Below, piece by piece: positions 1,949-64,000 of a DNA stretch of 64,000 bases; position 1 is the first letter of the stretch, and every line of letters starts with the position of its first letter. A program made the translations under genes and the position numbers. This stretch comes from Spirochaetia bacterium (GTDB taxonomy: Bacteria; Spirochaetota; Spirochaetia; CADAEX01), in assembly GCA_017535435.1 (NCBI GenBank), contig JAFXTY010000050.1, positions 5,211 through 69,210 on the forward strand, in the 5' to 3' direction. Under the pieces are notes generated by a model, which saw only the letters and a list, made by a program, of their open reading frames with translations, did not search any database and had not been told where the DNA came from.

Positions 1949-1956
1949 ATAACACA

Positions 1957-2757: not shown

Positions 2758-2759
2758 AA

Positions 2760-3722: not shown

Positions 3723-3744
3723 GAATAATCGTTCTTGTTGTTTC

Positions 3745-48555: not shown

Positions 48556-51500
48556 ATGCAGAGCGTAGGAATCAATATTGGTTCTTCCAGCTTGAAGATA
48601 GCTTGCGTTGCAGATGGTAAGCTTTTGTGGGCTGAGAGTATTCCCCACGAGGGCAATTTCCACGATGCGGCAGAAAAAATATTAGAAGCTCATCCCATTG
48701 AAAAAGGGGCAAGAGCATTGGCAACCGGAACAGAGGGACGTTTTCTCTTCTCTGTCAACAAGACTGTGGAGCCTCTCTGTATTGAAGAGGCCCTGAAGGA
48801 GCTTAAGCTCAAGGCAGATGCCATTGTCTCCCTGGGCGGTGAGGATCTGGTAGTCTACACCCTCAATGACGAGGGAAGAATCATAAACAACTTCTCCGGC
48901 AGCAAGTGTGCCTCCGGAACTGGAGAGTTCTTCAAGCAGCAGCTTGCCCGTATGGACATGAAGCTGGAGGATGTGAACGGTGTTCCAGACACAGCCCGTA
49001 TACTTGAGCTTTCAACAAGATGCTCGGTATTCATGAAGAGCGACTGCACCCACCGGCTCAACAAGGGCGAGGCAACTAAAGAGGATATTGTCCTTTCCCT
49101 CAGCAATGTGATGGCTGTGAAGGTCATCGACTTCCTCAAGAAGGCAAGAATAAGCAAGGGCAAGGTCATCCTTGTGGGTGGAATCACCAGGAACCGCCAT
49201 ATCATCCGGTTCATCAAGGAGAAGGCTCCTGATATCGAATTTATCATCCCGGAGGAGGCATCTTACTTCGAGGCCCTGGGTGCCGCATATCTGGCAGCTA
49301 AGGATGGAAGCCCGATGCCGGAGCCAGGCAAGCTCATCACAAAGAATAAGGTAAGCTTCACCCACCTTGAGAGCCTTAAGACACAGCTTTCCAAGGTCAC
49401 ATACTTCCCTGCAAAGCATGGCAAGACAGTTGCAGGCAGAGAATACATACTGGGAGTGGACGGCGGTTCCACAACCACCAAGGCATGTCTTATCGACATG
49501 GAGACAGACGAGATAACTGCATCCTTCTACGGCCGTACCCATGGCGACCCGGTGAAGGCTCTCAAGCAGTGTCTCCAGGAAATCAAAAAGCAGGTCAAAG
49601 CCGATATCGGTGACGGCAAAATCAATATAACACTGGCATCAACCACAGGCTCATCCCGGGAGATTCTGGGAGTGTTCCTGGAGACACCGGCTGTATACAA
49701 CGAGATTATCGCCCACACCGAGGGAACCACATACTTCTCCAACGATGTGGACACTATCTTCGAGATCGGCGGTCAGGATGCAAAATATGTGCTCCTCAAG
49801 AACAAGGTTCCTATCGACTATGCCATGAACGAGGCCTGCTCTGCAGGTACAGGATCCTTCCTTGAGGAATCTGCCTCCGGAGACCTTAACATTGCCCATG
49901 CATGGGAGATCGGGGACATTGCCCTTGAGGCAGAGAACCCGCTTAAGTTCGGCGAGCACTGCTCTGCCTTCATCAACTCAGATATCCGCAAGGCTATCCA
50001 GCAGGGTGCAACACGGGCCGACATCACAGCAGGTATTGTCACATCCATAGTCTCCAACTACCTTAACAGAGTTGTGGGAAACAGGACTGTGGGCAACAAG
50101 ATATTCCTCCAGGGTGGAGTTGCCAAGAACAAGGCTATCCCACTGGCCTTCGCACTCCTTTTAGGCAAGGAGATTCTGGTGCCGCCAGATCCTGAGCTCA
50201 TGGGCTGCTTCGGCGTAGGCCTTCTGGCAAAGCAGAAGTTCAAAGAGGGGCTTATTTCCAAGGCAACCTTCGACATCGACAAGATCCTTGAGACTGAGAT
50301 CATCTATGAGAGCGAGTTCAAGTGCAAATCCTGCGAGAACCAGTGCCCTATCCGTATCCTCAAGGTAAACGGCAACAAGTATATGTTCGGCGGCCGGTGC
50401 TCCAAGTACACCAACTCCAGGAAGAAGAAGCTGTTCGACGAGTCCAAGATCCGGAACTTTGTGGATGAGCGCAACGACCTTATGTTCAAGACCTTTGCTC
50501 CGGACGAGGCCAGCTTTGTGAAGAAGAGGGACTACACTGTAGGTATTCCCAAGGCATTCTCTGTCTATACGCTCTATCCCTTCTACTCCTGGTATTTCCA
50601 CCAGCTGGGAATAAAGACAGTGCTTTCAGACAAGGTGCCCCACTCCGGTGTTGCCAGGGTTGAGTCCACCTACTGTTTCCCTGCGGAGATTGCCCACGGT
50701 GCGGTTCAGGATATCCTGGACAAGCATACAGACTACATATTCCTGCCTCATTACCGGGACATGCCCAGCCACGAGAGCGACATACACGCAAACTTCTGTC
50801 CTATTACCCAGAGCCTGCCATACTACATAAGAAAGGCTTTCCCCGAGATTCCCGAGGAGAAGATCCTTTCACCTGTAGTAAGCTTCAGAACTGGACTGGA
50901 CAAGGCTATAGAGTTCTTTATCCAGTTGGGAGAGAAACTGGGATTCACTGCTGCCGAAGCTAGAGATGCCTTCAATGTGGCACTTAAGAAGCAGAATGAG
51001 TATCAGGAGGCTGCATTCAAGCTGGGCGAGGAAGCTTTGGAATATGCCAAGAGTCAGAAACAGCCTGTCATTGCACTTCTGGGCCGTCCATATAACGCAT
51101 TTGCCAAAGAGGCAAACATCGGTATCCCACGGAAGTTCACAAGCCGTGGCAACACAGTCATTCCGTTTGATATCCTGCCTATAGGCAACAAGAAAATATT
51201 CCCGAATATGTACTGGTACTATGGCCAGAAGGATATGCACACTGCCTTCAATATGAAGGAGAACCCTAACATATTTGTCACCTGGGTCAGCAACTTCTCC
51301 TGTGCACCAGACTCTTTCATGCTCCACTACCTTAAGTGGATAATGGGGACCAAGCCGTTCCTGGTGCTGGAGCTGGATTCCCACTCTGCAGATGCAGGTG
51401 TGGACACCCGTGTTGAGGCATTCCTGGATATTATCGAGGGCTACCGCCTGAAGTACAGCGGAAAGGACGAGGAGCGCTATGACAACGGCCTCCGGTTTGT

Positions 51501-52833
51501 GAACGACGGCAAGAGCGAGCCCCATCTCCATAACGAGCATACAGGTGAGGATATTGCTATCCGCGGCAACAAGAAGGTGAAGATTCTCCTCTCCAACATG
51601 GGTGATATCTCTGCCAGGTCCATGGCTGCCACAGCCCAGTCCCTGGGCTTCAATGCCGAGGCTGTTCCTATTCCGACACCACGGACACTGCGTTTTGCCC
51701 GGAACCATGCATCTGGAAAGGAGTGTGTTCCTTCCCTGCTGCTTCTGGGTTCAATGCTTGAGTATTTTGCATCTGACAAATACGACAAGAGTACCACATA
51801 TATGATATTTGTCCCCATAACTACAGGGCCATGCCGTACAGGCCAGTACTTTGTCTTCTACCAGAACCTGTTCCGGGACCTTAGGCTTGAGAACGTGGTT
51901 GTATTCACCTTGAGTGCAGACCACTCATATTCAGAACTTGGGGCAGGATTCTCCAAGATTATGTGGTGGGCATTGTGTGCCGCCGACTATCTTAAGGATA
52001 TTCAGACAGTTCTCCGTACCTGTGCCAAGGACAGAACATATGCCATGGCCGAGGTTCAGGAAGGTGTCAAGTATGTCCTTGAGGAGGCCAGAAAGAGCTG
52101 GAAGAACATAGTTCCGGCCCTTAAGGTGTTTGCTGACAGGGTCAAGAAAATTCCGCTAAAGAAAGATCCAGCCACCTGTCCGAAGGTTCTGGTTGTGGGC
52201 GAAATCTATGTGCGCCGTGATGACTATGCAGTGGACGAGATTATCAGATCCTGTGCAGATAAAGGCATTATAGCCAAAGTTTCCGGCATAGGGGAGTGGA
52301 TCCACTATACCGACTTTGTGCAGGAGTACTTCCTTAAGCGGGAGCGGACAGTATTCCCATGGTATAAGAAGATATTCAGCGACAACACCAAAAAGCTGCT
52401 TGTTCTTAAGCTTGCAGAAGCCTGGAAGGAGTCTACCGAGGCTAAGATAAGAGAGGCACTGGAGCCCTGTGGCCTGATACCAAAGTCGCCTCACGATATG
52501 AAGAAGATTATGGCCAATACCCTCAAGTTTGTAAGCTACGAGCTTAACTCCGAGATCTCCATCTCCAGCGGTGCAGCTGCTACAGCTATGGAAGAAGGTT
52601 ATTCCGGCGTTGTTAATATATCTCCATTTGCATGTCTTATCGGACGTGTCATCGAAGGGCTCTATATGCCATATGCACGGCAGCACAAGTATCCAGCTAT
52701 CTCCATAGAGATTGACGGCAACCAGCTGCCTCCGAACATTATCAATAAGCTTAACATCTTTATGCTCAATGTCATCAGGTACAAAGAGAATCCAGGTGTA
52801 GCAGAGCTGATTGATTACGAGGATGAGAAGTAG
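48556..52833 (+). CDS. giant CoA-substrate-specific enzyme activase (two BadF/BadG/BcrA/BcrD ATPase domains) fused to a 2-hydroxyacyl-CoA-dehydratase D-component-like domain
   Basis: 1425 aa. Two acetate/sugar-kinase-fold ATPase domains (MQSVGINIGSSSLKIA..., second LGVDGGSTTTKACLI...). Cys pairs and a dehydratase-like C-terminal region of about 800 aa. Confidence 0.8.
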   Translation: MQSVGINIGSSSLKIACVADGKLLWAESIPHEGNFHDAAEKILEAHPIEKGARALATGTEGRFLFSVNKTVEPLCIEEALKELKLKADAIVSLGGEDLVVYTLNDEGRIINNFSGSKCASGTGEFFKQQLARMDMKLEDVNGVPDTARILELSTRCSVFMKSDCTHRLNKGEATKEDIVLSLSNVMAVKVIDFLKKARISKGKVILVGGITRNRHIIRFIKEKAPDIEFIIPEEASYFEALGAAYLAAKDGSPMPEPGKLITKNKVSFTHLESLKTQLSKVTYFPAKHGKTVAGREYILGVDGGSTTTKACLIDMETDEITASFYGRTHGDPVKALKQCLQEIKKQVKADIGDGKINITLASTTGSSREILGVFLETPAVYNEIIAHTEGTTYFSNDVDTIFEIGGQDAKYVLLKNKVPIDYAMNEACSAGTGSFLEESASGDLNIAHAWEIGDIALEAENPLKFGEHCSAFINSDIRKAIQQGATRADITAGIVTSIVSNYLNRVVGNRTVGNKIFLQGGVAKNKAIPLAFALLLGKEILVPPDPELMGCFGVGLLAKQKFKEGLISKATFDIDKILETEIIYESEFKCKSCENQCPIRILKVNGNKYMFGGRCSKYTNSRKKKLFDESKIRNFVDERNDLMFKTFAPDEASFVKKRDYTVGIPKAFSVYTLYPFYSWYFHQLGIKTVLSDKVPHSGVARVESTYCFPAEIAHGAVQDILDKHTDYIFLPHYRDMPSHESDIHANFCPITQSLPYYIRKAFPEIPEEKILSPVVSFRTGLDKAIEFFIQLGEKLGFTAAEARDAFNVALKKQNEYQEAAFKLGEEALEYAKSQKQPVIALLGRPYNAFAKEANIGIPRKFTSRGNTVIPFDILPIGNKKIFPNMYWYYGQKDMHTAFNMKENPNIFVTWVSNFSCAPDSFMLHYLKWIMGTKPFLVLELDSHSADAGVDTRVEAFLDIIEGYRLKYSGKDEERYDNGLRFVNDGKSEPHLHNEHTGEDIAIRGNKKVKILLSNMGDISARSMAATAQSLGFNAEAVPIPTPRTLRFARNHASGKECVPSLLLLGSMLEYFASDKYDKSTTYMIFVPITTGPCRTGQYFVFYQNLFRDLRLENVVVFTLSADHSYSELGAGFSKIMWWALCAADYLKDIQTVLRTCAKDRTYAMAEVQEGVKYVLEEARKSWKNIVPALKVFADRVKKIPLKKDPATCPKVLVVGEIYVRRDDYAVDEIIRSCADKGIIAKVSGIGEWIHYTDFVQEYFLKRERTVFPWYKKIFSDNTKKLLVLKLAEAWKESTEAKIREALEPCGLIPKSPHDMKKIMANTLKFVSYELNSEISISSGAAATAMEEGYSGVVNISPFACLIGRVIEGLYMPYARQHKYPAISIEIDGNQLPPNIINKLNIFMLNVIRYKENPGVAELIDYEDEK

Positions 52834-53689
52834 AAAGTTTTTGATACTGCTGGTTCTTTGCCTGGGAATATTGTTTTCTGCCCAGGCAGAGCCGGTAGTA
52901 AGTTATCTGGGGCCACAGGGCACCTATTCTCAGGAAGCCTGTCAGGTTTTCTTCGGTCAGCAGGGAGAATTCCTTCCTTTTGAGAGCGTAAGTAAAGCAG
53001 TTCAGTCTCTGGTCGAGGGTAAATGCGATTATGCGGTGATTCCTCAGGAGAACACAATCGGTGGTGCTGTCCTTGATTATGTTGATGTGCTGATAGCTCA
53101 TAAAGAAGTCTATGTCTGTGGCGAGGTGGAGCTCCTTATAAGTCAGAACCTTTTAGCCATTCCTGGCACAAAGCCGAGTGATATTAAAGAAGTTTTCTCC
53201 CATAAGCAGGGCATTATACAGGGTCGGGAATGGCTTGATAAAAACATTCCTGATGCAAAGGTGACCGAGGTCTCAAGCACGGCGGAAGGGGCACGGCTGG
53301 TTTCTGAAAAGGGGGATTCATCTTATGCGGCTATTTCATATGCAGCCTGTGCTGGTGTGTATGGCCTTGAGATTCTTGCCCCGGGTATCCAGAACAATAA
53401 CAGCAACAAGACCCGCTTCTATGTGCTTTCCGTAGAAAAGCCTGTATCCGGATCTGGTGAGAGGATTGCATTTATTGCTTCGGGAGATGCAAAAAGTCTG
53501 CCTGCTCTTATGGCAGATATGAAAAAGAAAAAGATGACACTGGTCACAATTCACGACTGCCCCAAGAAGACAGAACTGGGAGAATATTATTACCTTATTG
53601 AATGTACCGGATCATATAAAAGCTATCAGAAGCTGGCAGGAAAAAGCAGTTTTGACCTGCGCTACCTGGGCAGTTTTGATGTACGCTGA
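52823..53689 (+). CDS. prephenate dehydratase (PDT plus ACT-like domain) with N-terminal signal peptide
   Basis: Start at ATG 52823 (MRSRKFLILLVLCLGILFSAQA|EP). PDT signatures LGPQGTYSQEA, NKTRFYVLS and STAEGAR. C-terminal ACT-like segment. Confidence 0.7.
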   Translation: MRSRKFLILLVLCLGILFSAQAEPVVSYLGPQGTYSQEACQVFFGQQGEFLPFESVSKAVQSLVEGKCDYAVIPQENTIGGAVLDYVDVLIAHKEVYVCGEVELLISQNLLAIPGTKPSDIKEVFSHKQGIIQGREWLDKNIPDAKVTEVSSTAEGARLVSEKGDSSYAAISYAACAGVYGLEILAPGIQNNNSNKTRFYVLSVEKPVSGSGERIAFIASGDAKSLPALMADMKKKKMTLVTIHDCPKKTELGEYYYLIECTGSYKSYQKLAGKSSFDLRYLGSFDVR

Positions 53690-53694
53690 CTAAC

Positions 53695-54249
53695 TTATCT
53701 CTCCTTTTCCGATACAAAGCAGGCTACCAGCCCGTAGATAAGTGTAGGGCGGATCCAGATTTCTGTAAGCATATAGTTGGTATATTCATTGATTGGATTG
53801 AGGTAGATGACATAGTTGTACAGTCCTGCAATGGCTGTATCAATGATGAAAAGAAGCCACAGATTGCGTTTGGTGTAACTCTTCCAGTCCTTGCGGGCAT
53901 AGAAGAAAGTCAGCAGCAGGAGCAGCATCACCGATAGCGTAAGGCAGACCAACTGGAGTGGGTAACTTTCCAGTGGCGGCGGAAAAAGGATATCCCGCAG
54001 CAGTACTGTAATGCCTACGAATACCGAGCTCCAGTAGTTGAAACGCTGGCTGTCCAGCCGTCTAAAGAAGTACAACGCCATCATCACCAGGCAGGCGATA
54101 TAGCACAGGTTAAGCACCAGTTCGGGCCATGCCTCGGCCAGACCGAAATGCTTTATTCCATAGAGCATTATGCCTACCGAGAGCACAGCCGCTACAGCGG
54201 TAAATCCAATGTCTATGATCTGTGATTTCTTTCTGAATCTTGTTTCCAT
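53695..54249 (-). CDS. hypothetical polytopic membrane protein
   Basis: 184 aa with about 5 predicted TM helices. Last gene of the minus-strand operon, 1 nt after the RsbW-like gene. Confidence 0.45.
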   Translation of the reverse strand: METRFRKKSQIIDIGFTAVAAVLSVGIMLYGIKHFGLAEAWPELVLNLCYIACLVMMALYFFRRLDSQRFNYWSSVFVGITVLLRDILFPPPLESYPLQLVCLTLSVMLLLLLTFFYARKDWKSYTKRNLWLLFIIDTAIAGLYNYVIYLNPINEYTNYMLTEIWIRPTLIYGLVACFVSEKER

Positions 54250-54250
54250 G

Positions 54251-54670
54251 CTATCTTGAAAATACTTTTGTCATATTAAGGATATTCTTACCATCCCTGT
54301 ATGTATAGCTCATATCATCAACTTTCTGCCTGGAATAAAAAATGCCAAGACCGCCTATAGGCTTGTCTTCCACAGCAAGGCTTGTATCCGGCCCGTCTTG
54401 TTCCAGCGGATTGAATGGTATTCCGCTGTCTGTAATGGTGATACAGGCTTTGTTTTCTTCCGGGTAGAGGAGAAAGTTTATGGCAACGTTTCCACCGTTT
54501 TCGCCGTAGGCATAGCTTGCTATGTTTATGAAAAGCTCTTCCAGCACCATCTTTATCTGCATGAACTCTTTTTGGGGACATGAAAGCAGAGAAAGGCTTT
54601 CTGTTACGAAAGCAAACACTTTGTTGAGATTTTCTTTCTGTGCTGCTATTTCCAGTATTTTTTCAATCAT
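54251..54670 (-). CDS. RsbW/SpoIIAB-like anti-sigma regulatory Ser kinase (HATPase)
   Basis: 139 aa. MVLEELFINIASYAY (N-box-like), ITDSGIPF (G1) and GGLGI (G2) motifs. Confidence 0.7.
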   Translation of the reverse strand: MIEKILEIAAQKENLNKVFAFVTESLSLLSCPQKEFMQIKMVLEELFINIASYAYGENGGNVAINFLLYPEENKACITITDSGIPFNPLEQDGPDTSLAVEDKPIGGLGIFYSRQKVDDMSYTYRDGKNILNMTKVFSR

Positions 54671-54681
54671 AATTACACCTC

Positions 54682-56133
54682 CTATGCCATATGAATAAGC
54701 AGCATGGTGATGTCGTCAAACTGCTCTGTCTGAGATGCAAATGCATCCACATCCTGTTTGATTCCCAAAAGGAAAGATTCCTCTCCCCGGTTGTCCAGCC
54801 TGTTCAGCGTTGCAATCAGGCGGCTGTCTCCGTATAGACCGCCTTCTGAATTGTGAGCTTCGGTGACGCCGTCGGTGTATAAGAAGATAGTGTCACCGCT
54901 CTGCAGCTCCAGTGTCGATTCCTTGTATACGGTGCCTTCCATGCCGGCCAGCATAAGCCCATGACGCTTCTTTAAGAATTCAAAGTCCCCTCCGGATTTT
55001 GCAAAACATGGCGAATTATGCCCGGCATTGGTATAAGTGATCAGGTGGGTCTCTGTATCCAGAATTCCTATCCAGGCGGTGGCAAACATCTCTTCTGTAT
55101 TGTTCTCGCATAACATGCGGTTAACATCGGTAAAAATCTCGGCTGTAGAACGCTTCATGGAGGCATGGTCTTTTATCATAGTCTTTACAGTCATCATAAA
55201 GAGGGCAGCTGGTACACCTTTTCCTGATACGTCGGCTATTACAAAGCCGATATGGTTGCTGTCTATCTCGAAAAAGTCGTAGAAATCGCCACCCACTTCC
55301 TTTGCAGTATCCATGGATGCGTATATCTGGACATCCGGGTGGGACAGCAGGATATGGTTTACCGAGGGGAGCGAGCCGTACTGTATATTTGCCGCAATGT
55401 TCAAATCGGCTTCCACGGTGGCTATCCGGCTCTGGCTTTTTACCACAGTATCGGTGTTAAGGTTAGTGATAAGGTAGACAAGAGGATAAGAAAACATACA
55501 GCTGGTAATAAAAAAATCATTATTGCCTTTTAAAATATAATACTGAATAGAATAGATAAAAAAGATGAGCACAAGAAAAATAGTAAAGTGGATTGCAGTA
55601 CGATAGTTTTCTGTGTGTTTTTTTCGTTCTTTGATTATAGTTCGTGCTACCAGAATAATTGGAGTCAGGGTATACAGGAAAAATACTGGTGCAAAAATAT
55701 AGTTATAGGCAGGCAGGAACTGTATCATATTCTCTTCATCCACCATGTAGAGAAAGTGAGTCCAGGGCATAGTAATGCAGAGCAGCATCACTATGCAACC
55801 AGGGATAATATATAATAGCCATACTTTATGGATGACCAGGCCGAACCGTTCATGTACATAGCAGTTTATGAGGGAGCAGATTATAAAAAGCGTCATGGTA
55901 TACAACCCCCATATCAGGTAGTTGAGTGCCACCATTATGACTCCCCCTCCAGTCACAAACCCTGAAAACGCATCTAAAAGGGACATAAGAATGATTGAGA
56001 GCAGCAGAAGGGTAAGCTTGTCGGAAAAACCCATTTTATACAGCACAATGTTGTTGTAGAGAAGAATGAACAGCAGAAAGAGCGAGAAGATAACCAGCTC
56101 ATAGTAGAGGGCATCTGTTGTCAGAATATCCAT
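54682..56133 (-). CDS. PP2C-family Ser phosphatase (RsbU/SpoIIE-like) with N-terminal polytopic membrane domain
   Basis: 483 aa. About 8-10 TM helices, then a PP2C core (GGDFYD, VIADVSGKG, LYTDGVTEA metal-binding Asp motifs). Confidence 0.8.
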   Translation of the reverse strand: MDILTTDALYYELVIFSLFLLFILLYNNIVLYKMGFSDKLTLLLLSIILMSLLDAFSGFVTGGGVIMVALNYLIWGLYTMTLFIICSLINCYVHERFGLVIHKVWLLYIIPGCIVMLLCITMPWTHFLYMVDEENMIQFLPAYNYIFAPVFFLYTLTPIILVARTIIKERKKHTENYRTAIHFTIFLVLIFFIYSIQYYILKGNNDFFITSCMFSYPLVYLITNLNTDTVVKSQSRIATVEADLNIAANIQYGSLPSVNHILLSHPDVQIYASMDTAKEVGGDFYDFFEIDSNHIGFVIADVSGKGVPAALFMMTVKTMIKDHASMKRSTAEIFTDVNRMLCENNTEEMFATAWIGILDTETHLITYTNAGHNSPCFAKSGGDFEFLKKRHGLMLAGMEGTVYKESTLELQSGDTIFLYTDGVTEAHNSEGGLYGDSRLIATLNRLDNRGEESFLLGIKQDVDAFASQTEQFDDITMLLIHMA

Positions 56134-56157
56134 ATAACATCTCCTTCTTTTTAATCG

Positions 56158-57891
56158 CTATCCTGTTACCATGAAAGTATTGCGGTTGTAACTCATGGTG
56201 GTAAGGTACTTCTTGTTGCCCTTGAGTGCATCCATATAGCCGGAGACCACAAAGGCAAGGCAGGATACTGCATTTGCATCCTCATCTGCCAGATTGAACA
56301 GCACGCCGTCGTCCTTGGTGATAATCTGTACGGCATTGTCCCGCAGAATGACGGTACATTCTGCTGAGATAAGCTGCTTTCCTGAGCCGTTTTTCTCGTA
56401 GATAAGCATGTACAGATCCTCGATCAGATGCTTGCAGCGGAAAATTATTTTTTTTCTTATACCAGCAGCTGCAAGGAAAACCTCAACCTGCTTCTGAGTA
56501 GCAATGACATTCTCTGGTGTCACTGTAAATTCGTAGAAGGCAATATTGCCGGCATCAGTTTTTTCTTTAAGCAGCAGGGGCCAGTTTGTCTTTCCATATC
56601 TTATGCGTACATACAGCATTGTAATGATGTATGCCACCAGCGGGGAGAGTGCGGATCCGAAAAACAGTCCGTAAAGGCCGAATAGTTTTCCACAGATTAT
56701 ACAGACAGGAACAGCCACCAGTGCATCCCGCATACCGCAGATTGCAACCCCCAGCATAATTCTGTCGATAAGCAGGTAGTAGGAACTCAGCAGATACAGC
56801 ATACTTATGGGGACAAATCCCAGTGCCATGATACGGATGCCATTTGTAGCATAGGCTGCTGCAGGAGAGTTTGTAACGCCGTAGATTCTGGCTATAAAGG
56901 GAGCTAGGAGGACAAATAGGGCGAACATAAAAAGTGCCTCAAGGATGGCAGCCTTCTGGGCCAGAGCATAGCATTTTTTTACACCATCATAAGTCTCTTC
57001 TCCCAGATATATATTCATCAGCGGAGTGATTGCCTCGCCGATGCCGTCAAAAACCAGCTGGAATTCCTTTATGAACAGGATAAATGCCACTAAAATAAGC
57101 ATTTCTGGACCATAGGTGCTGACTATAAAGCGGTTGATGACTACGGTGAATATTCCAATGAACAGGTAGGAGCTGGCATCTATGGCGCTGTACTTGGCAG
57201 CAGTGGCCAGGCCGCGGAAAGAAAAGTAAATGCCTGGCTTGAAGGATGAGCTTGGGCGGAAAAAATGCATACAGGAGATAGCCAAGGAAAGTGCAGTCCC
57301 GGCAAAGGATGCAAAACCGATGCCCGCAATCCCCCAGAAAGGGGCAAGGGCGATAGAAAGCACCAGGTTTCCAACCATCTGTGCTATGTTGGCGGCAAAG
57401 CTTATGCTTTCATCGCCGTCAGTCAGCACCATCTCTGTCATAAGCATATTCAGGGGAGACAGCAGAATGGCACAGCTGTACCAGAAAAGATAAGGCTTTG
57501 CCAGCAGGAATACAGTCTGTTCCGGCTCATAAAAGAGCAGGTAGCGGTCTCCAAAAGTCAGGAGCATGGCAAACAGAATGCCGCCTGTCATTATTGCGGC
57601 AGTAAAACCCAGCGAAAACCAGCGCCCGGCAGCTTTCTGGTCAAATTCCCCCATGGCCTTGGCATATAGAATCGGAATTCCTATAGAAATAAGGCCTGCG
57701 AAAAACGAGGCGGCGGAATATGCCGGAGCTACCAGGCTGATAGCGGCAACAGCATCCTTTCCCAGCGCAATTCCTGCGATTATTGAATCTGAGATCAGAA
57801 GTGCGGTAACCACTACCATGGTCATGGTACCTGGAAGCAGCAGCGAGATAAATTTTTTCTGCAGAAAGGTCGGGGCAGACTTTATTTCCAT
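56158..57891 (-). CDS. MATE-family efflux transporter fused to a C-terminal RsbW-like (anti-sigma kinase-fold) domain
   Basis: 577 aa. 12 TM MATE core of about 450 aa. The C-terminal 125 aa FYEFTVTPENVIATQKQVEVFLAAAGIRKKIIFRCKHLIEDLYMLIYEKNGSGKQLISAECTVILRDNAVQIITKDDGVLFNL align by eye to RsbW (EMKVPAQPEYVGIIRLTLSGVASRMGY...EIEDLKIAVSEACTNAVQHAY...EVSI...EDRLEVIVADEGDSFDF). No GGLGL box. Confidence 0.7.
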   Translation of the reverse strand: MEIKSAPTFLQKKFISLLLPGTMTMVVVTALLISDSIIAGIALGKDAVAAISLVAPAYSAASFFAGLISIGIPILYAKAMGEFDQKAAGRWFSLGFTAAIMTGGILFAMLLTFGDRYLLFYEPEQTVFLLAKPYLFWYSCAILLSPLNMLMTEMVLTDGDESISFAANIAQMVGNLVLSIALAPFWGIAGIGFASFAGTALSLAISCMHFFRPSSSFKPGIYFSFRGLATAAKYSAIDASSYLFIGIFTVVINRFIVSTYGPEMLILVAFILFIKEFQLVFDGIGEAITPLMNIYLGEETYDGVKKCYALAQKAAILEALFMFALFVLLAPFIARIYGVTNSPAAAYATNGIRIMALGFVPISMLYLLSSYYLLIDRIMLGVAICGMRDALVAVPVCIICGKLFGLYGLFFGSALSPLVAYIITMLYVRIRYGKTNWPLLLKEKTDAGNIAFYEFTVTPENVIATQKQVEVFLAAAGIRKKIIFRCKHLIEDLYMLIYEKNGSGKQLISAECTVILRDNAVQIITKDDGVLFNLADEDANAVSCLAFVVSGYMDALKGNKKYLTTMSYNRNTFMVTG

Positions 57892-58187
57892 TCGATGTCA
57901 AAAACGCTGTCAAGGCAGGTGCTTTCCAGCACGTCCTTAAAGTTCTCTCCTACGTTGATAAGTTTCATAGAAGCCTTTTTCTGCTTGAGCGTCTTGAATG
58001 TAGAAAGCAGTACGCGGATTCCGGCAGAGGAGACATAATCACAGTCGGTGAAATCCAGCACCAGGGCGGTGATCTTATCAATCTGTGTACCGATAACGGC
58101 AGATAATTCCGGGCTGGTAAGCGTATTCAGCTCACCGGAAAGAGCAATTGTCTGTTTTCCATCAGAAACAGTAGATGTTAATTCCAT
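57882..58187 (-). CDS. STAS-domain anti-sigma-factor antagonist (SpoIIAA/RsbV-like)
   Basis: 101 aa. LDFTDCDYVSSAGIRVLL with a conserved phosphorylatable Ser (DYVSS) and the STAS fold pattern. Confidence 0.8.
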   Translation of the reverse strand: MELTSTVSDGKQTIALSGELNTLTSPELSAVIGTQIDKITALVLDFTDCDYVSSAGIRVLLSTFKTLKQKKASMKLINVGENFKDVLESTCLDSVFDIEWK

Positions 58188-58202
58188 ATATTTCCTCCAG
58201 CT

Positions 58203-61199
58203 TCAGCCATCACAGATACGATATAGCATATTTGACTGTTTTGCAAGCAAGTTGATTTGTCTGGACGACAGTGTGATATCAGGATTTTCTGCCGTCATTA
58301 AGAGCATTTCACAGGAAGCAGCAAATAGGTTTACGAACCTTTCCATACTTTCCCGTCTGTACTGGGCTGAGTTATAATCAAGAATAAAACCGAATCCGTC
58401 TCTGCTCTCAAGTATCTCAATCTCAGGTGAATTGCCGCAGCCACAGGGGAATTCATCGGTCTCCAAGGGCTCTGCCGTATTCTTCATGAAACTGCGGTAT
58501 TTGTCACATTCGTACATATCTCCCTGATATAAAAGACATAAGACTTCATGCCCTTGGTACAACCCGATTCTGTCAAAGTAGGAGATGCTTCCATGGGCAA
58601 TACTTTCAAGAACCTGCTCCTTTGCCTGCATAAGCAGATCTTTCAGCTTGGTTTTATCATCAATAGTGAATGCAATAGGAAAGTCCTTATAAAAGAGTCC
58701 GATGGAACGCTGTACAGAGACATCTTCCCGTCCGTTCCATACCCAGGAGAGCATGACATTCCGGGCTTTGTCATACATAGCAATTGCCAGGGCAACAGCT
58801 GCAGTATAGAATTCATTCTTCCCCAGTCCATAATGCTGGCAGAGGGATGTGACACGATCTTTTGAGAATTTAAAATCACCCTCTATACTGTCCAGGATAT
58901 TCTTATCTGTGTCAAAATCGGTCCGGGGCCGGGTATGCCAGCCATCTTTGTCATAGCGGTTTTTAAAGTACGCAACATCATGGGAATAAGTTTCGGTGTT
59001 CTTGAAGTCTGCTTCTTTCTGCATAGCCTGGTAGGTGAAATCGGCCCCTAGTTCGGTGCCGCCCAGGCTTAGAGCAATGTCGTCCATAAGAATTTCCATA
59101 GAAGAGCCATCTGCAACAACATGGTATACATCAAAAAGAAAAACGTTCTGCTCCGGAGTGCTTATAATCCGGGTTCGGAAAAGGGGGCTGCCGTCAAGCA
59201 GGAATGGTCTTACAAAGTGTTTTTCGGCATCGGCAAGTTCTTCCATGTTCATGGTCTCCACAGGTATTTCCTTGTCAAAACCAGCCTCATAGCGCAGATA
59301 ATAGGTGTCACCCTCTTTCTCGATGACGCTCAAGAGTGCAGGATGGGCAGAAAGGGCTTTCCTGACAGCCTGGGCGAACTGGCTCAAGTCCACATTGTCC
59401 GAAAGTATGGCCTTATACGCAAGGTTGTACATGACTGTTCCTGGAGCCGACAGTTCACAGCGGAGCATATAAAGCTGAATATCGTTTAATGGTGCTTTTG
59501 TCAGCCTGTTTTTTCCCTGTACACTGGCAGATGTTTGAGCCATAAGAGCATCCACTGCTTCTGCAATAGCCCGCACAGTCCGTTTCTCAAAAATAAGAGG
59601 CACGGACAAAGGAAGAGTATTGCATTTGACCAGGAGATTCATGGCGCATATACTGTCACCACCAAGGGCAATAAAATCATCATCAATACCGATTTGCCCT
59701 ACATTTCCAGATTCGTTCAGAACTTTCTTAAAAGCATCACAAAGCATTTTCTGTGTCTTAGTCTCTGGTGGCACATATTCAGCATGATTCTCGCTGAAAG
59801 CTGGTGGTGTCAGTGATTTTTTGTCTATCTTGCCGTTTGTGTTCAGGGGCATTTTCTCAAAGTGGATAAAGTATGAAGGAATCATGTACTCGGGAAGAAG
59901 CTTTTTTAAGGATGTGCGGATTGTCTCCTCAGGAACAGCAGTCTCCTTCTGGTAATAGGCACAGAGAAAATGAATTCCCGTGTTCTCAAAAGCCTTTACA
60001 GCTACAACCTTTGTTCCCAGCACTTTTTTAAGTGCAGTCTCCACCTCGGCAGGCTCCACACGGTTTCCGTTGATCTTGACCATATCGTCTGCCCGTCCCA
60101 GAATGTATAAAAGTCCGTCTTCTCCCCGTCTGGCAAAGTCCCTGGTGCGGAAGAATTTTTTTCCTCCTATCCAGATGAATGCTTTATCATTCTCTTCCTG
60201 CTGGTTCAGGTAGCCCCGGAAATAGGGCAGGTAAAGGCAGATTTCCCCTTCTTTTTCAGAAACCTTGCCGTCATCAAGAAGCACCATATCGGTATAGGAG
60301 CATCCAGACCCAATCGGCGTGTTTGAATATGGCCTGTCGATCACAAAGCTGCAGGCTGTGGACATAAGCTCTGTATTGCAGTAGAGATTGCGGAAGTCGA
60401 ATCTGTCGCTATAGGTATCGCTTACCCGTTCGGAAGAAAGCATAATAACCTTGGGTGAAAGGCTTTTGTTTTCAGAAAGGGGTTTTATCATCGAGGCTGT
60501 CAGGAACATTGCGTCAATCCTGTGGTCTTTTAAAAACTGCATGTAAAGCATAGGATTTTTGACGACAGCATCGGAAACTATATAAATTGTAACGGCATCG
60601 TAGAGCATACTCACATTGATAATGATAAAAGCAGAAAAAGTTACCGGCGCCACATTTGCAAAGCGGAGGGAATCGTCCTTCATGGTATAGGGTTTCACAA
60701 CTTCCTCGGCTGTACCTGTTGTCGTAAAACGGTACACACCATATTCTTCTACAACTCCTTTCGGCTTTCCTGTGCTGCCTGATGTGTAGATGATAAAGGC
60801 AAGGTCATGCTCGTCGCTCTCTGCCCAATCTGCTTCTGGAAGGGGCTTGTAGCTCATGGCCTTATCCCAGTGCATACTGTCAAATACCAGTCTGGCACCC
60901 GAGTCCTTAAGCACATGCTCTATGCGCTCCTGGCCCATGGCATCGGAAATGGGTACAAAGGCACAGCCGCATTTTATTACCCCAAGTTCCACAGCAACAT
61001 ATTCCATGGATTTTTCCAACTTTATGGCAACCAGTTCTTCTTTTTGGAGCCCCAGTGTTTTTAAGTATGCGGCAACACGGCTTGAATAATCATTCAGCTG
61101 GGCATAGGTGGTTTTACGCTCGCCGTCCCGGTCAACTATAGCGGCGCGTCCAGGGTATTTCCCTGCCACTTCTGATAATCTATGTAAGAATGGAATCAT
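58203..61199 (-). CDS. single-module nonribosomal peptide synthetase, domain order A-T-C
   Basis: 998 aa. Adenylation cores IIYTSGSTGKPKGV, GRADDMVKINGNRVEPAEVE and NGKIDKK. Carrier-domain Ser in IALGGDSICAMNLL. C-terminal condensation domain with YHVVADGSSM (HHxxxDG). Confidence 0.8.
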   Translation of the reverse strand: MIPFLHRLSEVAGKYPGRAAIVDRDGERKTTYAQLNDYSSRVAAYLKTLGLQKEELVAIKLEKSMEYVAVELGVIKCGCAFVPISDAMGQERIEHVLKDSGARLVFDSMHWDKAMSYKPLPEADWAESDEHDLAFIIYTSGSTGKPKGVVEEYGVYRFTTTGTAEEVVKPYTMKDDSLRFANVAPVTFSAFIIINVSMLYDAVTIYIVSDAVVKNPMLYMQFLKDHRIDAMFLTASMIKPLSENKSLSPKVIMLSSERVSDTYSDRFDFRNLYCNTELMSTACSFVIDRPYSNTPIGSGCSYTDMVLLDDGKVSEKEGEICLYLPYFRGYLNQQEENDKAFIWIGGKKFFRTRDFARRGEDGLLYILGRADDMVKINGNRVEPAEVETALKKVLGTKVVAVKAFENTGIHFLCAYYQKETAVPEETIRTSLKKLLPEYMIPSYFIHFEKMPLNTNGKIDKKSLTPPAFSENHAEYVPPETKTQKMLCDAFKKVLNESGNVGQIGIDDDFIALGGDSICAMNLLVKCNTLPLSVPLIFEKRTVRAIAEAVDALMAQTSASVQGKNRLTKAPLNDIQLYMLRCELSAPGTVMYNLAYKAILSDNVDLSQFAQAVRKALSAHPALLSVIEKEGDTYYLRYEAGFDKEIPVETMNMEELADAEKHFVRPFLLDGSPLFRTRIISTPEQNVFLFDVYHVVADGSSMEILMDDIALSLGGTELGADFTYQAMQKEADFKNTETYSHDVAYFKNRYDKDGWHTRPRTDFDTDKNILDSIEGDFKFSKDRVTSLCQHYGLGKNEFYTAAVALAIAMYDKARNVMLSWVWNGREDVSVQRSIGLFYKDFPIAFTIDDKTKLKDLLMQAKEQVLESIAHGSISYFDRIGLYQGHEVLCLLYQGDMYECDKYRSFMKNTAEPLETDEFPCGCGNSPEIEILESRDGFGFILDYNSAQYRRESMERFVNLFAASCEMLLMTAENPDITLSSRQINLLAKQSNMLYRICDG

Positions 61200-62341
61200 C
61201 TGATAGATCCTAAGGTGTCTTTGAAATAATCCAGGACAGCTTTAAGTCCGCACTCCAAATCGGCCTTGTTCAAAAGCAGGTTTACCCGGAAGCAGAATCG
61301 GTGTTTTAAGTCAAGGCACTGCATAACACCAGGATAGGCAAAGTAGCCTTTATCTTTCATCAGCATCTTCATGGCATCGACGAAGAGCCTGTCATCAATC
61401 GTACGATCAATAAAAATCATGGCGTAATGCCCGGACACTTCCGAAGAAACTGTGGCAAAATCATAATCAGACAGTATATGCCTGACCAGCGAAAGATTTT
61501 CAGCCCAGAATTGATTATAGATGGAAAGACATTCATCAAAATTAGGTGAGATAAAATGATGATATCCCTGCCGGCATGAATAGTTGATAGAGCCTCCAAA
61601 GCTGTCATTCAGACTGTTGATTGCATCGTAATATTTTTTATGCACCACCAGGACAGAGAATTTTATTCCCTGGATACCAAGCGCTTTATGGGGGCTGTAT
61701 ATGTAGATAAGGTTTTCCTGAATCCCGAATGTCCGGGAAAGCTCCCTGCCGTTTATGCACAGGGATTCGTCTAAGATTACAAGCTTACCTGCATTCAGAA
61801 GTTTCTGAATGCCCTCTTTTACCCGCCGTTTGAAATAAATACTGCAGGAATTTAGAGGAGAAGTGAACCAGAAGGCATTGCAGTCAGACTGCAGAAGGAG
61901 GTCTGCATCAAATGATTCATTTATGTTCTCCATGAAGTCATCGAATATTGTGTAGTCCATTTTTAAGGCATCACAGCAGTCTGGAACGGAAAAATAGTAG
62001 GGGGTGATGATTCCAAGCTTTGCAGCCATTTCTGAAAGAAGAATTGAGACCATAGAAATGGAGAGGGTGCTCTGGGTCAGTGCATGGAAAAACGCATTTT
62101 TACAGTCGTCGGCAGAAAATCCCAGCTTGTCCGCAATTATCTCTTTTACATCCTCTGGAAAGTAATAATAGTAGTCGAATACATCCTGCTCGTTGTCAAC
62201 CTTCAGAATCTTTTTGATTTTTTCTTTATATTCAGAACCGGTATTCCAATAGGAAAGGTTTACAGGAGGCTGCTCCCGGCATTCTTTTTCTGCCTCATCC
62301 AGTTCCATCTCAATTTCATAATCAGTCATATAATTTTTCAT
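61196..62341 (-). CDS. PLP-dependent fold-type I enzyme (aminotransferase/decarboxylase-like), family unresolved
   Basis: 381 aa. LVILDESL (acidic residue before the PLP region) and YSPHKALGIQGIKFSVLV (S.HK Schiff-base Lys context). Similarity judged by eye only. Confidence 0.45.
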   Translation of the reverse strand: MKNYMTDYEIEMELDEAEKECREQPPVNLSYWNTGSEYKEKIKKILKVDNEQDVFDYYYYFPEDVKEIIADKLGFSADDCKNAFFHALTQSTLSISMVSILLSEMAAKLGIITPYYFSVPDCCDALKMDYTIFDDFMENINESFDADLLLQSDCNAFWFTSPLNSCSIYFKRRVKEGIQKLLNAGKLVILDESLCINGRELSRTFGIQENLIYIYSPHKALGIQGIKFSVLVVHKKYYDAINSLNDSFGGSINYSCRQGYHHFISPNFDECLSIYNQFWAENLSLVRHILSDYDFATVSSEVSGHYAMIFIDRTIDDRLFVDAMKMLMKDKGYFAYPGVMQCLDLKHRFCFRVNLLLNKADLECGLKAVLDYFKDTLGSIR

Positions 62342-63482
62342 ACTCCGTGTAGGTATAGCTTTTAATAGGCTTTATTCCAGACATTCTACTATATAAGAGG
62401 ATATCTGGAAAGTTGATTCCATTGAAATAGTTGACTTGTGCAAAGGAATATGAACCCATGTCGCCGAAAATGATTTTATCTCCAGGCTTCAGGGGCGATG
62501 AAAAGTCGTATTCCCCGAACACATCCCCGGAAAGGCAGCTGTTACCTGCAAGCAGATAGCTGTATTTCTTTTGGTCAGCGCGTCCTTTTTCTGGATAGAC
62601 CACAGGGAGCTGGTAATAGTTTTTAAGGACATCAAGGGCATGGCAGGAAAGGGATGTGTCAAGAATTGCTATGTCCTTTTCGTTGTGCACTATGTCCAGT
62701 ACAGTAACAACTAGGAAGCCTGCCTCCATAACCAGATATTCACAGGGCTCTATGTAGGTCTTTAAATGATATTTTGTATGCAGGATATCCAGATTCGCCT
62801 GGAAATGGTAAAAGTCAAAATCATCCTCGGTCAGGGCCTGCCCTCCCCCTAAGTTTATCCAGGAGACATAGGGAAAATAGCCAGAGAACTTTTCTATCCC
62901 GGCAGAAAGGAGATTGTTGAAATCTTTGGAAGAATTTCCGCATAGGGCATGGATATGGAAGCCGGAGATACGGTCCATGATATCTGGCTCAACTTTAGAA
63001 AGAGCCTCTTTTGTAAGTCCGAACCGGGAATAACGGCCACAGGGATTGTAGACAGCTTCTTTTACTGCATTGATTTCTGGATTAAGACGCAGGGCAAAAT
63101 TATTCTTTGCAGTCCCCACCTGATTGAAAACTGAAATCTGCTGTGGAGAGTTAAGGACAATATGGGAACAGATGGTGGCAATCGCCTCGGCATCTTCTGC
63201 CTTGTAAGCTGGGGTGTGAATATGAACTTCCTTTCCCAGGCCACTTCCCAGCTTAGCCTCAAAAAGCCCCGATGCAGAGGTCCCTTCTACATAAGGCTTG
63301 ATTAAAGGAAATGCCTTTGCCAGTGGAAAACCTTTCATGGCAAAAAGGAGTGAAAGCCCTGCTTTGTCAGATTTTGCCTTTATAGCCTTCAGGTTTTTTG
63401 TGAGAATATCGGTATCAATAATGTAGCAAGGTGTTTTGACCTTTTCTGTCCAGCCTGCAAAGGTGCCAAAATCAGAAGTCAT
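62322..63482 (-). CDS. carboxynorspermidine/carboxyspermidine decarboxylase-like (fold-III PLP decarboxylase)
   Basis: 386 aa. N-terminus KTPCYIIDTDILTKNLKAI resembles the NspC ...TPYYLIDE..L..NL start. LFAMKGF PLP-Lys region. Family-typical length. Confidence 0.65.
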   Translation of the reverse strand: MTSDFGTFAGWTEKVKTPCYIIDTDILTKNLKAIKAKSDKAGLSLLFAMKGFPLAKAFPLIKPYVEGTSASGLFEAKLGSGLGKEVHIHTPAYKAEDAEAIATICSHIVLNSPQQISVFNQVGTAKNNFALRLNPEINAVKEAVYNPCGRYSRFGLTKEALSKVEPDIMDRISGFHIHALCGNSSKDFNNLLSAGIEKFSGYFPYVSWINLGGGQALTEDDFDFYHFQANLDILHTKYHLKTYIEPCEYLVMEAGFLVVTVLDIVHNEKDIAILDTSLSCHALDVLKNYYQLPVVYPEKGRADQKKYSYLLAGNSCLSGDVFGEYDFSSPLKPGDKIIFGDMGSYSFAQVNYFNGINFPDILLYSRMSGIKPIKSYTYTEYEKLYD

Positions 63483-63997
63483 TTAATGTCCAGACCCTCT
63501 TTTTTGATGCACTCAACTTCTGGAACGCCATAGAGCAGCTGCACCAATGCCTTGGCATACTGGAAGCCGAAATCAAAGTCGCCGATATATCCGCCGGATG
63601 TAGTCACATAGTAGAACTTCTTTGCCTTGCACAAACCCTTAGGGTAACCTTCGGGGGTGTAGCGGAAAGTGATGCCACATACAGATGTGGCCTCGAAGTA
63701 AAGCTTTATCAGAGCTGGAAAGGAAAGATCCCAGTATGGAGCAGCCATTACTATGATATCAGCATCGGCAAACTGTTTGGCATACCGGAAAAACTGGTCG
63801 CTGAAATCATTTGCGGCAAGGGCTTTATCCCGTTTTGCAATATCAGCAATAGTAAGTGGTCTTAAGTTCTCATCTGCCAGATTCAGTACTTCTGCTCTCT
63901 CCCCAGTCTCTTTCTCCAGCTTTGAAAGAAGGTCTTCTGCCAGTTTAAGTGTCCGTGATTCCGGGCGTATGCAGGCATTTATAAACAATGTGCTCAT
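63479..63997 (-). CDS. flavodoxin-like-fold NAD(P)H-dependent FMN reductase / azoreductase-like protein
   Basis: 172 aa. TLFINACIRPESRT N-terminus and the MAAPYWDLSFPALIKLYFE pattern of the Flavodoxin_2 family. First gene of the minus-strand operon as seen in the window. Confidence 0.6.
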   Translation of the reverse strand: MSTLFINACIRPESRTLKLAEDLLSKLEKETGERAEVLNLADENLRPLTIADIAKRDKALAANDFSDQFFRYAKQFADADIIVMAAPYWDLSFPALIKLYFEATSVCGITFRYTPEGYPKGLCKAKKFYYVTTSGGYIGDFDFGFQYAKALVQLLYGVPEVECIKKEGLDIK

Positions 63998-64000
63998 AGT

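Follow-up and report, generated by a model that had tools for sequence, protein, structure and literature searches.

The window analysed here is a 64,000-nucleotide stretch of DNA from a Spirochaetia bacterium (GenBank assembly GCA_017535435.1, contig JAFXTY010000050.1). Near its end lie nine open reading frames (ORFs) on the minus strand, designated ORF1–ORF9, which run from 63997 down to 53695. They bring together a biosynthetic set (ORF1–ORF4) that includes a single-module nonribosomal peptide synthetase (NRPS), a partner-switching module made up of a STAS protein, a membrane phosphatase and an RsbW-like kinase (ORF5, ORF7 and ORF8), a MATE transporter with a fused RsbW-like tail (ORF6), and a small membrane protein (ORF9). 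Partner switching is a textbook mode of sigma-factor control, and few non-transcriptional outputs of it are known. The fused transporter, the genes that accompany it in other bacteria and its possible role as an output of the switch are the subject of this study.

Results

Organization of the gene cluster

The nine ORFs, with the two parts of ORF6 given separately, are as follows.

63479..63997, minus strand: ORF1, flavodoxin-fold NAD(P)H-dependent flavin mononucleotide (FMN) reductase/azoreductase-like protein, 172 aa from this ATG (Pfam Flavodoxin_2 4e-23, FMN_red 2e-11)
62322..63482, minus strand: ORF2, pyridoxal phosphate (PLP)-dependent decarboxylase, paralogue of NspC (carboxynorspermidine decarboxylase), 386 aa (TIGR01047, Pfam Orn_DAP_Arg_deC)
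61196..62341, minus strand: ORF3, divergent fold-type I (aminotransferase class I/II fold) PLP enzyme, as judged from an AlphaFold2 model, Foldseek and an invariant Lys219, 381 aa
58203..61199, minus strand: ORF4, single-module NRPS with the domain order adenylation-thiolation-condensation (A-T-C), 998 aa (Pfam AMP-binding 2e-46, PP-binding 2e-6, Condensation 1e-32)
57882..58187, minus strand: ORF5, single-domain STAS protein of the anti-sigma-factor-antagonist type, 101 aa (Pfam STAS 4e-14, TIGR00377)
56602..57891, minus strand: ORF6 residues 1 to ~430, divergent MATE (DinF-like) transmembrane domain (Pfam MatE 2e-14, in two stretches)
56161..56559, minus strand: ORF6 residues 445–577, cytoplasmic C-terminal tail of RsbW/SpoIIAB (GHKL) fold with degenerate ATP-binding motifs, a putative STAS-docking pseudokinase
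54682..56133, minus strand: ORF7, predicted membrane-anchored PP2C/SpoIIE-type Ser phosphatase, 483 aa (Pfam SpoIIE 4e-48, positions 2–190 of 192)
54251..54670, minus strand: ORF8, predicted stand-alone RsbW-like Ser kinase, 139 aa (Pfam HATPase_c_2 1e-18)
53695..54249, minus strand: ORF9, small polytopic membrane protein by hydropathy, 184 aa

These coordinates match exactly those of an earlier reading made from the sequence alone (hereafter, the sequence-only reading), which had described nine same-strand ORFs that overlap or are separated by 24 nt or less. From ORF1 to ORF9, the first three junctions overlap by 4, 20 and 4 nt; a 15-nt gap and a 10-nt overlap follow, and the last three junctions are gaps of 24, 11 and 1 nt. 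Hidden Markov model (HMM) searches, structure and profile comparison upheld the domain assignments of that reading for all nine proteins, the RsbW-like tail of the MATE protein included. The stop codon of ORF9 is 5 nt away from that of a convergent prephenate dehydratase gene. A scan for promoters and terminators returned sites no more numerous than in shuffled sequence and is thus uninformative on transcript ends; the overlapping or nearly abutting genes and the lack of a terminator-like excess are compatible with one transcript, without proving it. Rfam gave no match within the window. None of the nine proteins was matched by PADLOC, and the operon is therefore no known defence system.

Only 3 nt of the window lie upstream of the ORF1 ATG, and the possibility that the operon runs on beyond position 64000 had been raised. 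It does so in a goat-reticulum Spirochaetia metagenome-assembled genome (MAG; L003). The DNA of L003 is 93–97% identical to that of the window, which is therefore assigned to the species of L003. Two further co-directional genes precede ORF1 there, at L003 1718-3858, which corresponds to the sequence just past window position 64000; the operon therefore comprises at least 11 genes. They are as follows.

L003, within 1718-3858, upstream of ORF1: D-2-hydroxyacid dehydrogenase gene, 329 aa
L003, within 1718-3858: class I/II aminotransferase gene, 382 aa, the stop of which overlaps a possible earlier start of ORF1

This earlier start of ORF1 in L003 could lie 15 codons before the ATG used here. 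Further upstream in L003 are a divergent amidohydrolase gene and a LemA gene.

A degenerate RsbW-like domain is fused to the MATE transporter

The whole of ORF6 (57891-56158, minus strand) encodes 577 aa. Its hydropathy profile is hydrophobic up to about residue 426, which fits two MatE repeats and some 12 transmembrane helices. The sole relative of this domain among PDB sequences is DinF-BH, a DinF-type multidrug exporter, which aligns over the full length (E 4e-4); with DinF proteins as the only PDB sequence relatives, a MurJ or Wzx identity was dropped. Source databases label proteins of this kind 'MATE family efflux transporter' or 'hypothetical protein'.

The tail gave nothing relevant in searches of Pfam, including HATPase_c_2, or of PDB sequences. 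It is nevertheless a Bergerat/GHKL fold of the RsbW type by structure, and it is homologous in sequence to the co-encoded kinases: BLASTP aligns it to ORF8 with E 0.002, and when the profile of the tail family is compared with that of the RsbW-like kinases of the same loci, the probability is 93% and E is 3.6e-7. The strongly conserved tail consensus reads LLIEELYMLIYEKN...ECTV...IITKDDGVLFD...LTTMSxNRNxF. The tail retains the G1-box DxG and two invariant residues, a Glu and, 10 positions further on, an Asn. The Asn of the kinase N-box (EELyVNi), however, faces a Leu in the tail (EElyMLI), as it does in 25 of 25 aligned tails; four residues are deleted from the N-box helix; there is no glycine counterpart to the G2 box IGGLGI; and the lid region is modelled with a low predicted local confidence score (pLDDT). 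Given that the N-box Asn and the G2 box are missing, the fused domain is probably a non-catalytic docking pseudokinase. The stand-alone ORF8, by contrast, has intact boxes when aligned to Bacillus subtilis RsbW (6m36_A), namely N-box EELFIN, G1 DSGIPF and G2 IGGLGI, and these motifs are invariant columns among 10 orthologues. A docking tail and a working kinase in ORF8 are thus the most likely division of roles. The sequence-only reading had taken the fused domain as the kinase-fold partner of the switch; its RsbW-like fold stands, and kinase competence probably belongs to ORF8 instead.

A search of 1.84 billion cluster representatives with the tail profile recovered 546 proteins at E <= 1e-3, 373 of them at E <= 1e-10, which sets the size of the family at no less than ~370 clusters at 50% identity. 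In the best 150 of the 546 matches the domain is always C-terminal, in a protein of ~560–600 aa or a fragment thereof, and the tail thus seems to be confined to MATE fusions.

Switch and NRPS genes recur beside the MATE-tail gene

With one genome taken per species, 73 loci with a MATE-tail gene were found, nearly all of them in MAGs or isolates from the gut of goat, sheep, yak, buffalo, deer or cattle. The carriers belong to Spirochaetia/Treponema, Fibrobacter, Lachnospiraceae, Oscillospiraceae and other Clostridia. Neighbourhoods were counted in the 41 species-level loci with at least 4 kb of flank on both sides, the ORFs of which were searched with the nine window proteins. The genes beside the MATE-tail gene were distributed as follows.

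NRPS, PP2C and STAS: 12 of 41 loci
NRPS, PP2C, STAS and kinase: 1 of 41 loci (L003 only, the species of the window)
PP2C, STAS and kinase: 8 of 41 loci
PP2C and STAS: 7 of 41 loci
NRPS only: 4 of 41 loci
None of NRPS, PP2C, STAS or kinase: 9 of 41 loci

PP2C and STAS genes thus adjoin the MATE-tail gene in 28 of the 41 loci, and an A-T-C NRPS gene in 17. The composition is constant and the order varies between phyla and lineages: decarboxylase, PLP enzyme, NRPS, STAS, MATE and PP2C in Fibrobacter; MATE, PP2C, STAS and NRPS in Lachnospiraceae. The grouping of the genes is not due to chance, because genes of these families are found next to the MATE-tail gene again and again, in dozens of species belonging to three phyla. 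Clustering of all neighbour ORFs yielded no other recurrent family beyond some transporters and lineage-specific synteny.

The linkage also holds when the NRPS is taken as the starting point. Among distant A-T-C homologues (35–40% identity), five of five sampled adjoin a MatE gene encoding 551–595 aa; the tail was confirmed by HMM in both of the MatE neighbours tested (L078 being one of these two loci), and two of the five, including L080, have STAS and SpoIIE genes adjacent as well. In a neighbour-joining tree of the MATE-tail proteins, the NRPS-linked members from Spirochaetes, Fibrobacter and two Lachnospiraceae form one clade, a grouping consistent with movement of the cassette from one phylum to another within the rumen. 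Taken together, these comparisons of gene neighbourhoods strongly support a functional link of the MATE-tail gene to STAS and PP2C, and also to the A-T-C NRPS.

One locus, that of P0418 (GCA_016648615.1), has three tandem A-T-C synthetase genes and a DUF6198 gene followed by MATE-tail, STAS and SpoIIE genes. This arrangement suggests a single regulated transporter that may serve several acyl-amides, or a short oligomer.

The switch proteins

ORF5 scores 64 bits against TIGR00377, above the cut-off of 53 bits. Its Ser54 (codon 58026-58028) aligns with the phospho-acceptor Ser56 of RsbV (6m36_B) and is the predicted phospho-acceptor. The surrounding motif, [YF][VIL]SSAG[IL], is invariant in 45 of 45 STAS proteins of related loci, 31 of which come from loci with no local kinase gene. 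ORF7 combines a polytopic N-terminal region of ~200 aa, recognised by hydropathy, with a catalytic domain at residues 292–481; its NCBIfam matches to SiaA and RssB are weak, that to SiaA lying far under the equivalog cut-off of 700 bits. A sporulation role for this SpoIIE-like protein was dropped, since Spirochaetes and Fibrobacter do not sporulate.

The kinase is provided in three ways across the loci: as a free protein, as a fusion to the PP2C protein, or not within the locus. The fusions (SpoIIE with HATPase_c_2, 714–766 aa) are found at L080 9465-11609 and L068 7696-9996 and resemble Mycobacterium tuberculosis Rv1364c. As the sequence-only reading had stated for the nine genes, no sigma factor gene is present in the 11-gene operon, in its flanks or among the recurrent neighbours of related loci. 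The candidate target of the switch is instead the MATE domain fused to the W-like tail.

ORF9 has no family match in Pfam or NCBIfam, and homologues of it occur in L003, L005, L036 and L075. In spirochaete loci that have no switch genes it directly follows the MATE-tail gene (L005 3849-4607, L075 2-650). ORF9 thus appears to belong with the transporter or the pathway and not with the switch.

The biosynthetic genes and their inferred chemistry

The ORF4 synthetase has the motifs YTSGSTG and NGKIDKK in the A domain, GGDS in the T domain and YHVVADG with the catalytic His in the C domain; the A-domain motifs A3, A8 and A10 and the T-domain Ser are kept. At the position of Asp235, the residue by which amino-acid substrates are held at their alpha-amino group, ORF4 has Ser (FS opposite FD in the alignment to both LgrA A domains). 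Of 25 MATE-linked A-T-C enzymes, 23 lack this Asp; the Ser of the T domain and the His of the C domain are retained. Because the amino-binding Asp is replaced, ORF4 would activate a carboxylic acid other than a normal alpha-amino acid. The enzyme has no thioesterase (TE) or reductase (R) domain, and release onto a free nucleophile must therefore proceed via the terminal C domain; with an amine as this nucleophile, the acid would leave as an amide. Each of the 120 best relatives of the NRPS has a single module, and all are ~940–1000 aa long except one entry of 752 aa; they carry A and C domains and mostly also a recognised T domain, their names are uninformative, and no characterised homologue is among them.

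The amine acceptor, a polyamine-like compound or a decarboxylated amino acid, would be supplied by ORF2 and ORF3. ORF2 aligns over its full length to TIGR01047 (nspC; residues 15–383 against positions 1–378 of 380) but scores 347 bits and misses the equivalog cut-off of 409 bits, and it is therefore treated as an NspC paralogue and a candidate decarboxylase. ORF3 itself has no Pfam match. Its family comprises 68 proteins among 5.8 billion sequences, and some orthologues match PF00155. The AlphaFold2 model (pLDDT 90.6) finds its best Foldseek matches in the PDB with GntC, aspartate aminotransferase, kynurenine aminotransferase and OrfR (E 2e-17, about 1e-17; TM-score ~0.70), and Lys219 in the motif SPHK, a putative Schiff-base Lys, is invariant in the family. 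Comparison with hhalign of the ORF3 family and the neighbouring genuine aminotransferase gave 3.8% probability, and PDB profile matches were weak (E ~0.008). On the strength of the model, ORF3 is a PLP-fold enzyme, as had been read from the sequence.

The NspC-like and ORF3 genes co-occur in Fibrobacter and Treponema loci, and because they travel together, the two enzymes are the likely amine source. At L076 8001-11801, an unrelated locus with no NRPS gene, a 31%-identical ORF3 homologue is encoded near an Orn_DAP_Arg_deC decarboxylase gene, which suggests a two-step unit for amine synthesis made up of PLP enzyme and decarboxylase. The neighbours in L076 include TIR, RHS and radical-SAM genes.

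Given the 2-hydroxyacid dehydrogenase and aminotransferase genes upstream, the acid can plausibly be guessed to be a 2-hydroxy or 2-oxo acid. The pathway is predicted to yield a small acyl-amide, probably cationic, which would suit a MATE exporter. A vibriobactin-type catechol siderophore was considered and dropped, as there are no dihydroxybenzoate (DHB)-synthesis or receptor genes.

Two plus-strand genes convergent with the operon may also touch on the substrate. The prephenate dehydratase gene (window 52811-53689) has a TTG start and a signal-peptide-like N-terminus, MITRMRSRKFLILLVLCLGILFSAQA. The other gene (window 48556-52833) encodes a 1425-aa protein with BcrAD_BadFG, DUF2229 and HGD-D regions, similar to a 2-hydroxyacyl-CoA dehydratase activator. 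Synteny of both genes is kept in L003 and in L004, a sister spirochaete MAG, and they are a candidate link to a 2-hydroxy-acid substrate.

The switch behaves as a separable block

L004 occupies the same chromosomal site, with the prephenate dehydratase and 1425-aa activase flank at 88% DNA identity. It has the same biosynthetic genes, 77–78% identical, and two extra genes, one of 273 aa with no assignment and one of 210 aa (GNAT). Its MATE-tail allele differs, with 57% aa identity to that of the window, and the L004 locus has no STAS, PP2C, kinase or ORF9 gene. Window positions 53683-58275 have no nucleotide match in L004 (compared with L004 10001-11737), and the switch-plus-transporter block thus behaves as an exchangeable cassette. 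The GC content falls to 0.41–0.42 around window positions 55000-56500. The switch genes are an optional layer on the pathway and its transporter.

Discussion

A transporter as the proposed output of a partner switch

We propose, with moderate confidence and at about an even chance, that the product of the pathway is moved by a dedicated MATE transporter that is itself the direct output of a partner-switching phospho-switch. The RsbW-like tail, presumably dead as a kinase, would occupy the place that the anti-sigma factor has in the classical systems. Unphosphorylated STAS (ORF5) would dock on the tail and alter the activity of the transporter, most simply by lifting an autoinhibition; the free kinase ORF8 would phosphorylate Ser54 of STAS, which would then detach and reset the system; and the membrane phosphatase ORF7 would dephosphorylate the phosphorylated STAS when its polytopic N-terminal half senses a cue from the membrane or envelope. 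The binding of STAS, its phosphorylation and the direction of gating are modelled by analogy on RsbU-RsbV-RsbW, and the substrate is a prediction; the folds, the motifs, the gene order and the conserved linkage are direct observations. Tentatively, at a little below an even chance, we further suggest that a MATE family captured a dead anti-sigma kinase domain as a cytoplasmic STAS receptor, which made the transporter a switch output in three phyla, almost only in ruminant-gut bacteria. Phosphorylation-gated export was already the proposal of the sequence-only reading; the links of the MATE-tail gene to STAS and PP2C and to the NRPS now give it comparative-genomic support, and the gating itself is what we infer.

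Several points weigh against this proposal. Docking of STAS on the tail is put forward ahead of experimental or structural support, the identities of product, A-domain substrate and amine acceptor are guesses, and the single transcript is a reading of gene spacing, with which it is compatible. The NCBIfam scores of the MATE domain are all far under the equivalog cut-offs (71 bits against 445 for PRK09575, over residues 10–429 on positions 4–430 of 435). The conserved tail is kept in 13 of the 41 loci that have neither STAS nor PP2C nearby, including sister spirochaetes at the same chromosomal site, so that the tail may have a switch-independent role, or the switch proteins may act in trans. 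No local kinase is encoded in 19 of the 28 loci with PP2C and STAS, though the tail looks unable to bind ATP, and a trans-acting kinase or a residual activity of the tail must therefore be assumed. Finally, L078 and L079 place the NRPS and MATE-tail pair among glycosyltransferase genes, a setting that points to flipping of a lipid-linked sugar and not to export of a soluble metabolite.

The last point leads to an account that we consider unlikely, if worth keeping in view, in which the MATE-tail protein, a member of the MOP superfamily, is a flippase for a lipid-linked or envelope-bound amine that is N-acylated by the A-T-C enzyme, much as in Arn/Gtr systems, so that the switch tunes surface remodelling instead of secretion. 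At L078 2700-13000 and L079 2406-11997, the MATE-tail and A-T-C genes are flanked by genes for Glycos_transf_2 (GT2), YdjC (a deacetylase family), two GT_STM0557_N (GtrC-like) proteins, NeuB and Polysacc_synt, a layout that recalls Arn/Gtr surface-modification pathways and in which the MATE protein, its tail HMM-confirmed in L078, may flip a lipid-linked N-acylated amino sugar. Some members of the MATE-tail family have precomputed MurJ (PF03023) matches, and partner switches have been repeatedly tied to exopolysaccharide control, according to the discussion section of a recent preprint (bioRxiv 10.64898/2026.04.08.717354). The operon of the window and its Fibrobacter and Lachnospiraceae relatives, however, contain no glycosyltransferase or undecaprenyl-linked genes; the window has an amine-making decarboxylase and PLP enzyme in their stead, and the PDB sequence relatives of the MATE domain are of the DinF exporter type, not MurJ or Wzx. 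Distinctly unlikely, in our estimate, is a reversed flow of information, with the transporter as the input: flux through the MATE domain would alter the hold of the tail on STAS, and freed STAS or ORF8 would act on a target encoded elsewhere, for example a sigma factor, the NRPS itself or some other enzyme. Two W-type partners, the tail and ORF8, for one STAS are the arrangement that competition needs, and trans-acting partners must exist anyway, given the many loci that have no local kinase and those that have no local STAS and PP2C. Known partner switches, on the other hand, usually take their input via the phosphatase, and ORF7 has a polytopic domain of its own as a possible sensor; no candidate downstream target recurs in the neighbourhoods, and a W-like domain fused to a transporter is most simply explained by regulation in cis.

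That the tail still phosphorylates STAS, making the MATE protein a full equivalent of RsbW and ORF8 a lineage-specific extra, we hold to be improbable. Such an activity would account for the PP2C gene and the invariant STAS Ser in the 19 loci with no other local kinase, and the Glu, the G1 DxG and the Asn that follows the Glu are indeed retained; the substitution of the N-box Asn in every aligned tail, the N-box helix deletion, the loss of the G2 glycines and the poorly modelled lid speak against it, and the kinases fused to the PP2C protein in L068 and L080 argue that a separate kinase is needed. Very improbable, finally, is a mere juxtaposition of an unrelated biosynthetic unit and an unrelated regulated transporter unit read in the same direction. 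MATE-tail, PP2C and STAS genes do occur with no NRPS gene in 15 of the 41 loci, the NRPS and MATE-tail pair occurs with no switch in 4, and the cassette-like switch-plus-MATE block is unmatched in L004. The NRPS and MATE-tail genes are nevertheless adjacent in three phyla, in several divergent NRPS lineages and in all five of the NRPS-centred samples, and the genes overlap or abut.

Relation to known systems

The proposed gated transporter shares its components with RsbU-RsbV-RsbW and SpoIIE-SpoIIAA-SpoIIAB of Bacillus, namely a STAS protein with a conserved Ser, a GHKL kinase with N, G1 and G2 boxes and a PP2C/SpoIIE phosphatase, which in the case of SpoIIE has a membrane-anchored layout similar to that of ORF7. 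It differs in that the operon has no sigma factor gene, in that a second, degenerate W-type domain on the MATE protein presumably replaces the anti-sigma/sigma output, and in that the host phyla are non-sporulating. Rv1364c of M. tuberculosis, with fused RsbU-RsbW-RsbV-type domains, and UsfX regulate SigF, and neither is fused to a transporter. Partner switches with outputs other than a sigma factor include SiaABCD, SypE/SypA and BtrUVW. In Pseudomonas aeruginosa SiaABCD (membrane PP2C SiaA, kinase SiaB, STAS-like SiaC and diguanylate cyclase SiaD), the output is an enzyme bound by the STAS-like protein, whereas the presumed output here is a transporter with its own W-like docking domain. As described in the above preprint (bioRxiv 10.64898/2026.04.08.717354), a switch of STAS protein, SpoIIE-type phosphatase and kinase in Anabaena (HenR/All4160/Alr3423) directly controls a non-transcriptional, membrane-associated biosynthesis. 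On that description, the phosphorylation-dependent switch and the non-transcriptional kind of output are common to both systems, but the STAS domain is fused to the output glycosyltransferase in Anabaena, while here STAS is free and the kinase-fold domain is fused to the output transporter.

STAS proteins are also found in contact with transporters. In MlaB-MlaF, a STAS protein is bound to the ABC ATPase of the transporter, and SLC26/SulP transporters carry STAS domains at the C-terminus (PMC8256260). In both cases STAS lies at the cytoplasmic side of the transporter and is required for stability or function, as would apply here; there, however, it is fused or sits on the ABC ATPase and has no kinase/phosphatase cycle, whereas here the W-like receptor is on the transporter and STAS is free and predicted to be phosphorylatable.

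For the synthetase, vibriobactin assembly by VibE/VibB/VibH with NspC offers a parallel, in which the C domain of VibH releases the product onto a free polyamine. The present operon likewise has a gene for an NspC-like homologue of a polyamine-pathway decarboxylase, and the ORF4 A domain lacks Asp235, as do acid-activating A domains. In glidonins, the terminal NRPS module adds putrescine (PMC10587159). A terminal condensation domain with no TE or R domain is common to both pathways and ORF4; the present system differs by its single A-T-C module, the lack of DHB and siderophore genes and an NspC-like protein below the equivalog cut-off.

Full-text searches of the published literature and targeted reading turned up no account of an RsbW-like domain joined to a MATE protein or any other transporter, nor of this gene cluster, in agreement with the sequence-only reading, which knew of no described system of such composition. 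The MATE-RsbW fusion and the cluster are unmentioned in a survey of rumen biosynthetic gene clusters (PMC8241843) and in a review of STAS-only proteins (PMC8256260). These comparisons suggest that the new element is a partner switch with a fused transporter as its class of output, paired with an uncharacterised family of A-T-C synthetases.

If the proposal is correct, this would be the first partner switch to gate membrane transport, adding transport to the short list of non-transcriptional outputs, and one STAS, one tail, one kinase and one phosphatase would make it a simple system to study. It would also be the first post-translational, signal-dependent gating of the secretion of a nonribosomal product, the release of a secondary metabolite being controlled after translation and not solely via transcription of the cluster. 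The A-T-C synthetases, with neither the amino-binding Asp nor a characterised relative, point to an unexplored class of small acyl-amides. Their makers would be abundant fibre-degrading rumen bacteria, namely Fibrobacter, Treponema and Lachnospiraceae, and within this habitat the cassette seems to have passed from phylum to phylum. A cultured carrier is known, Fibrobacter sp. UWB13, which makes the idea directly testable.

Another gene in the window

Farther from the operon, at window 45331-46203 on the plus strand, lies a gene for a 290-aa protein with a C-terminal GIY-YIG nuclease domain. Its GC content is 0.34 compared with ~0.48 around it, with a strong GC skew, and the gene may be mobile or recently acquired.

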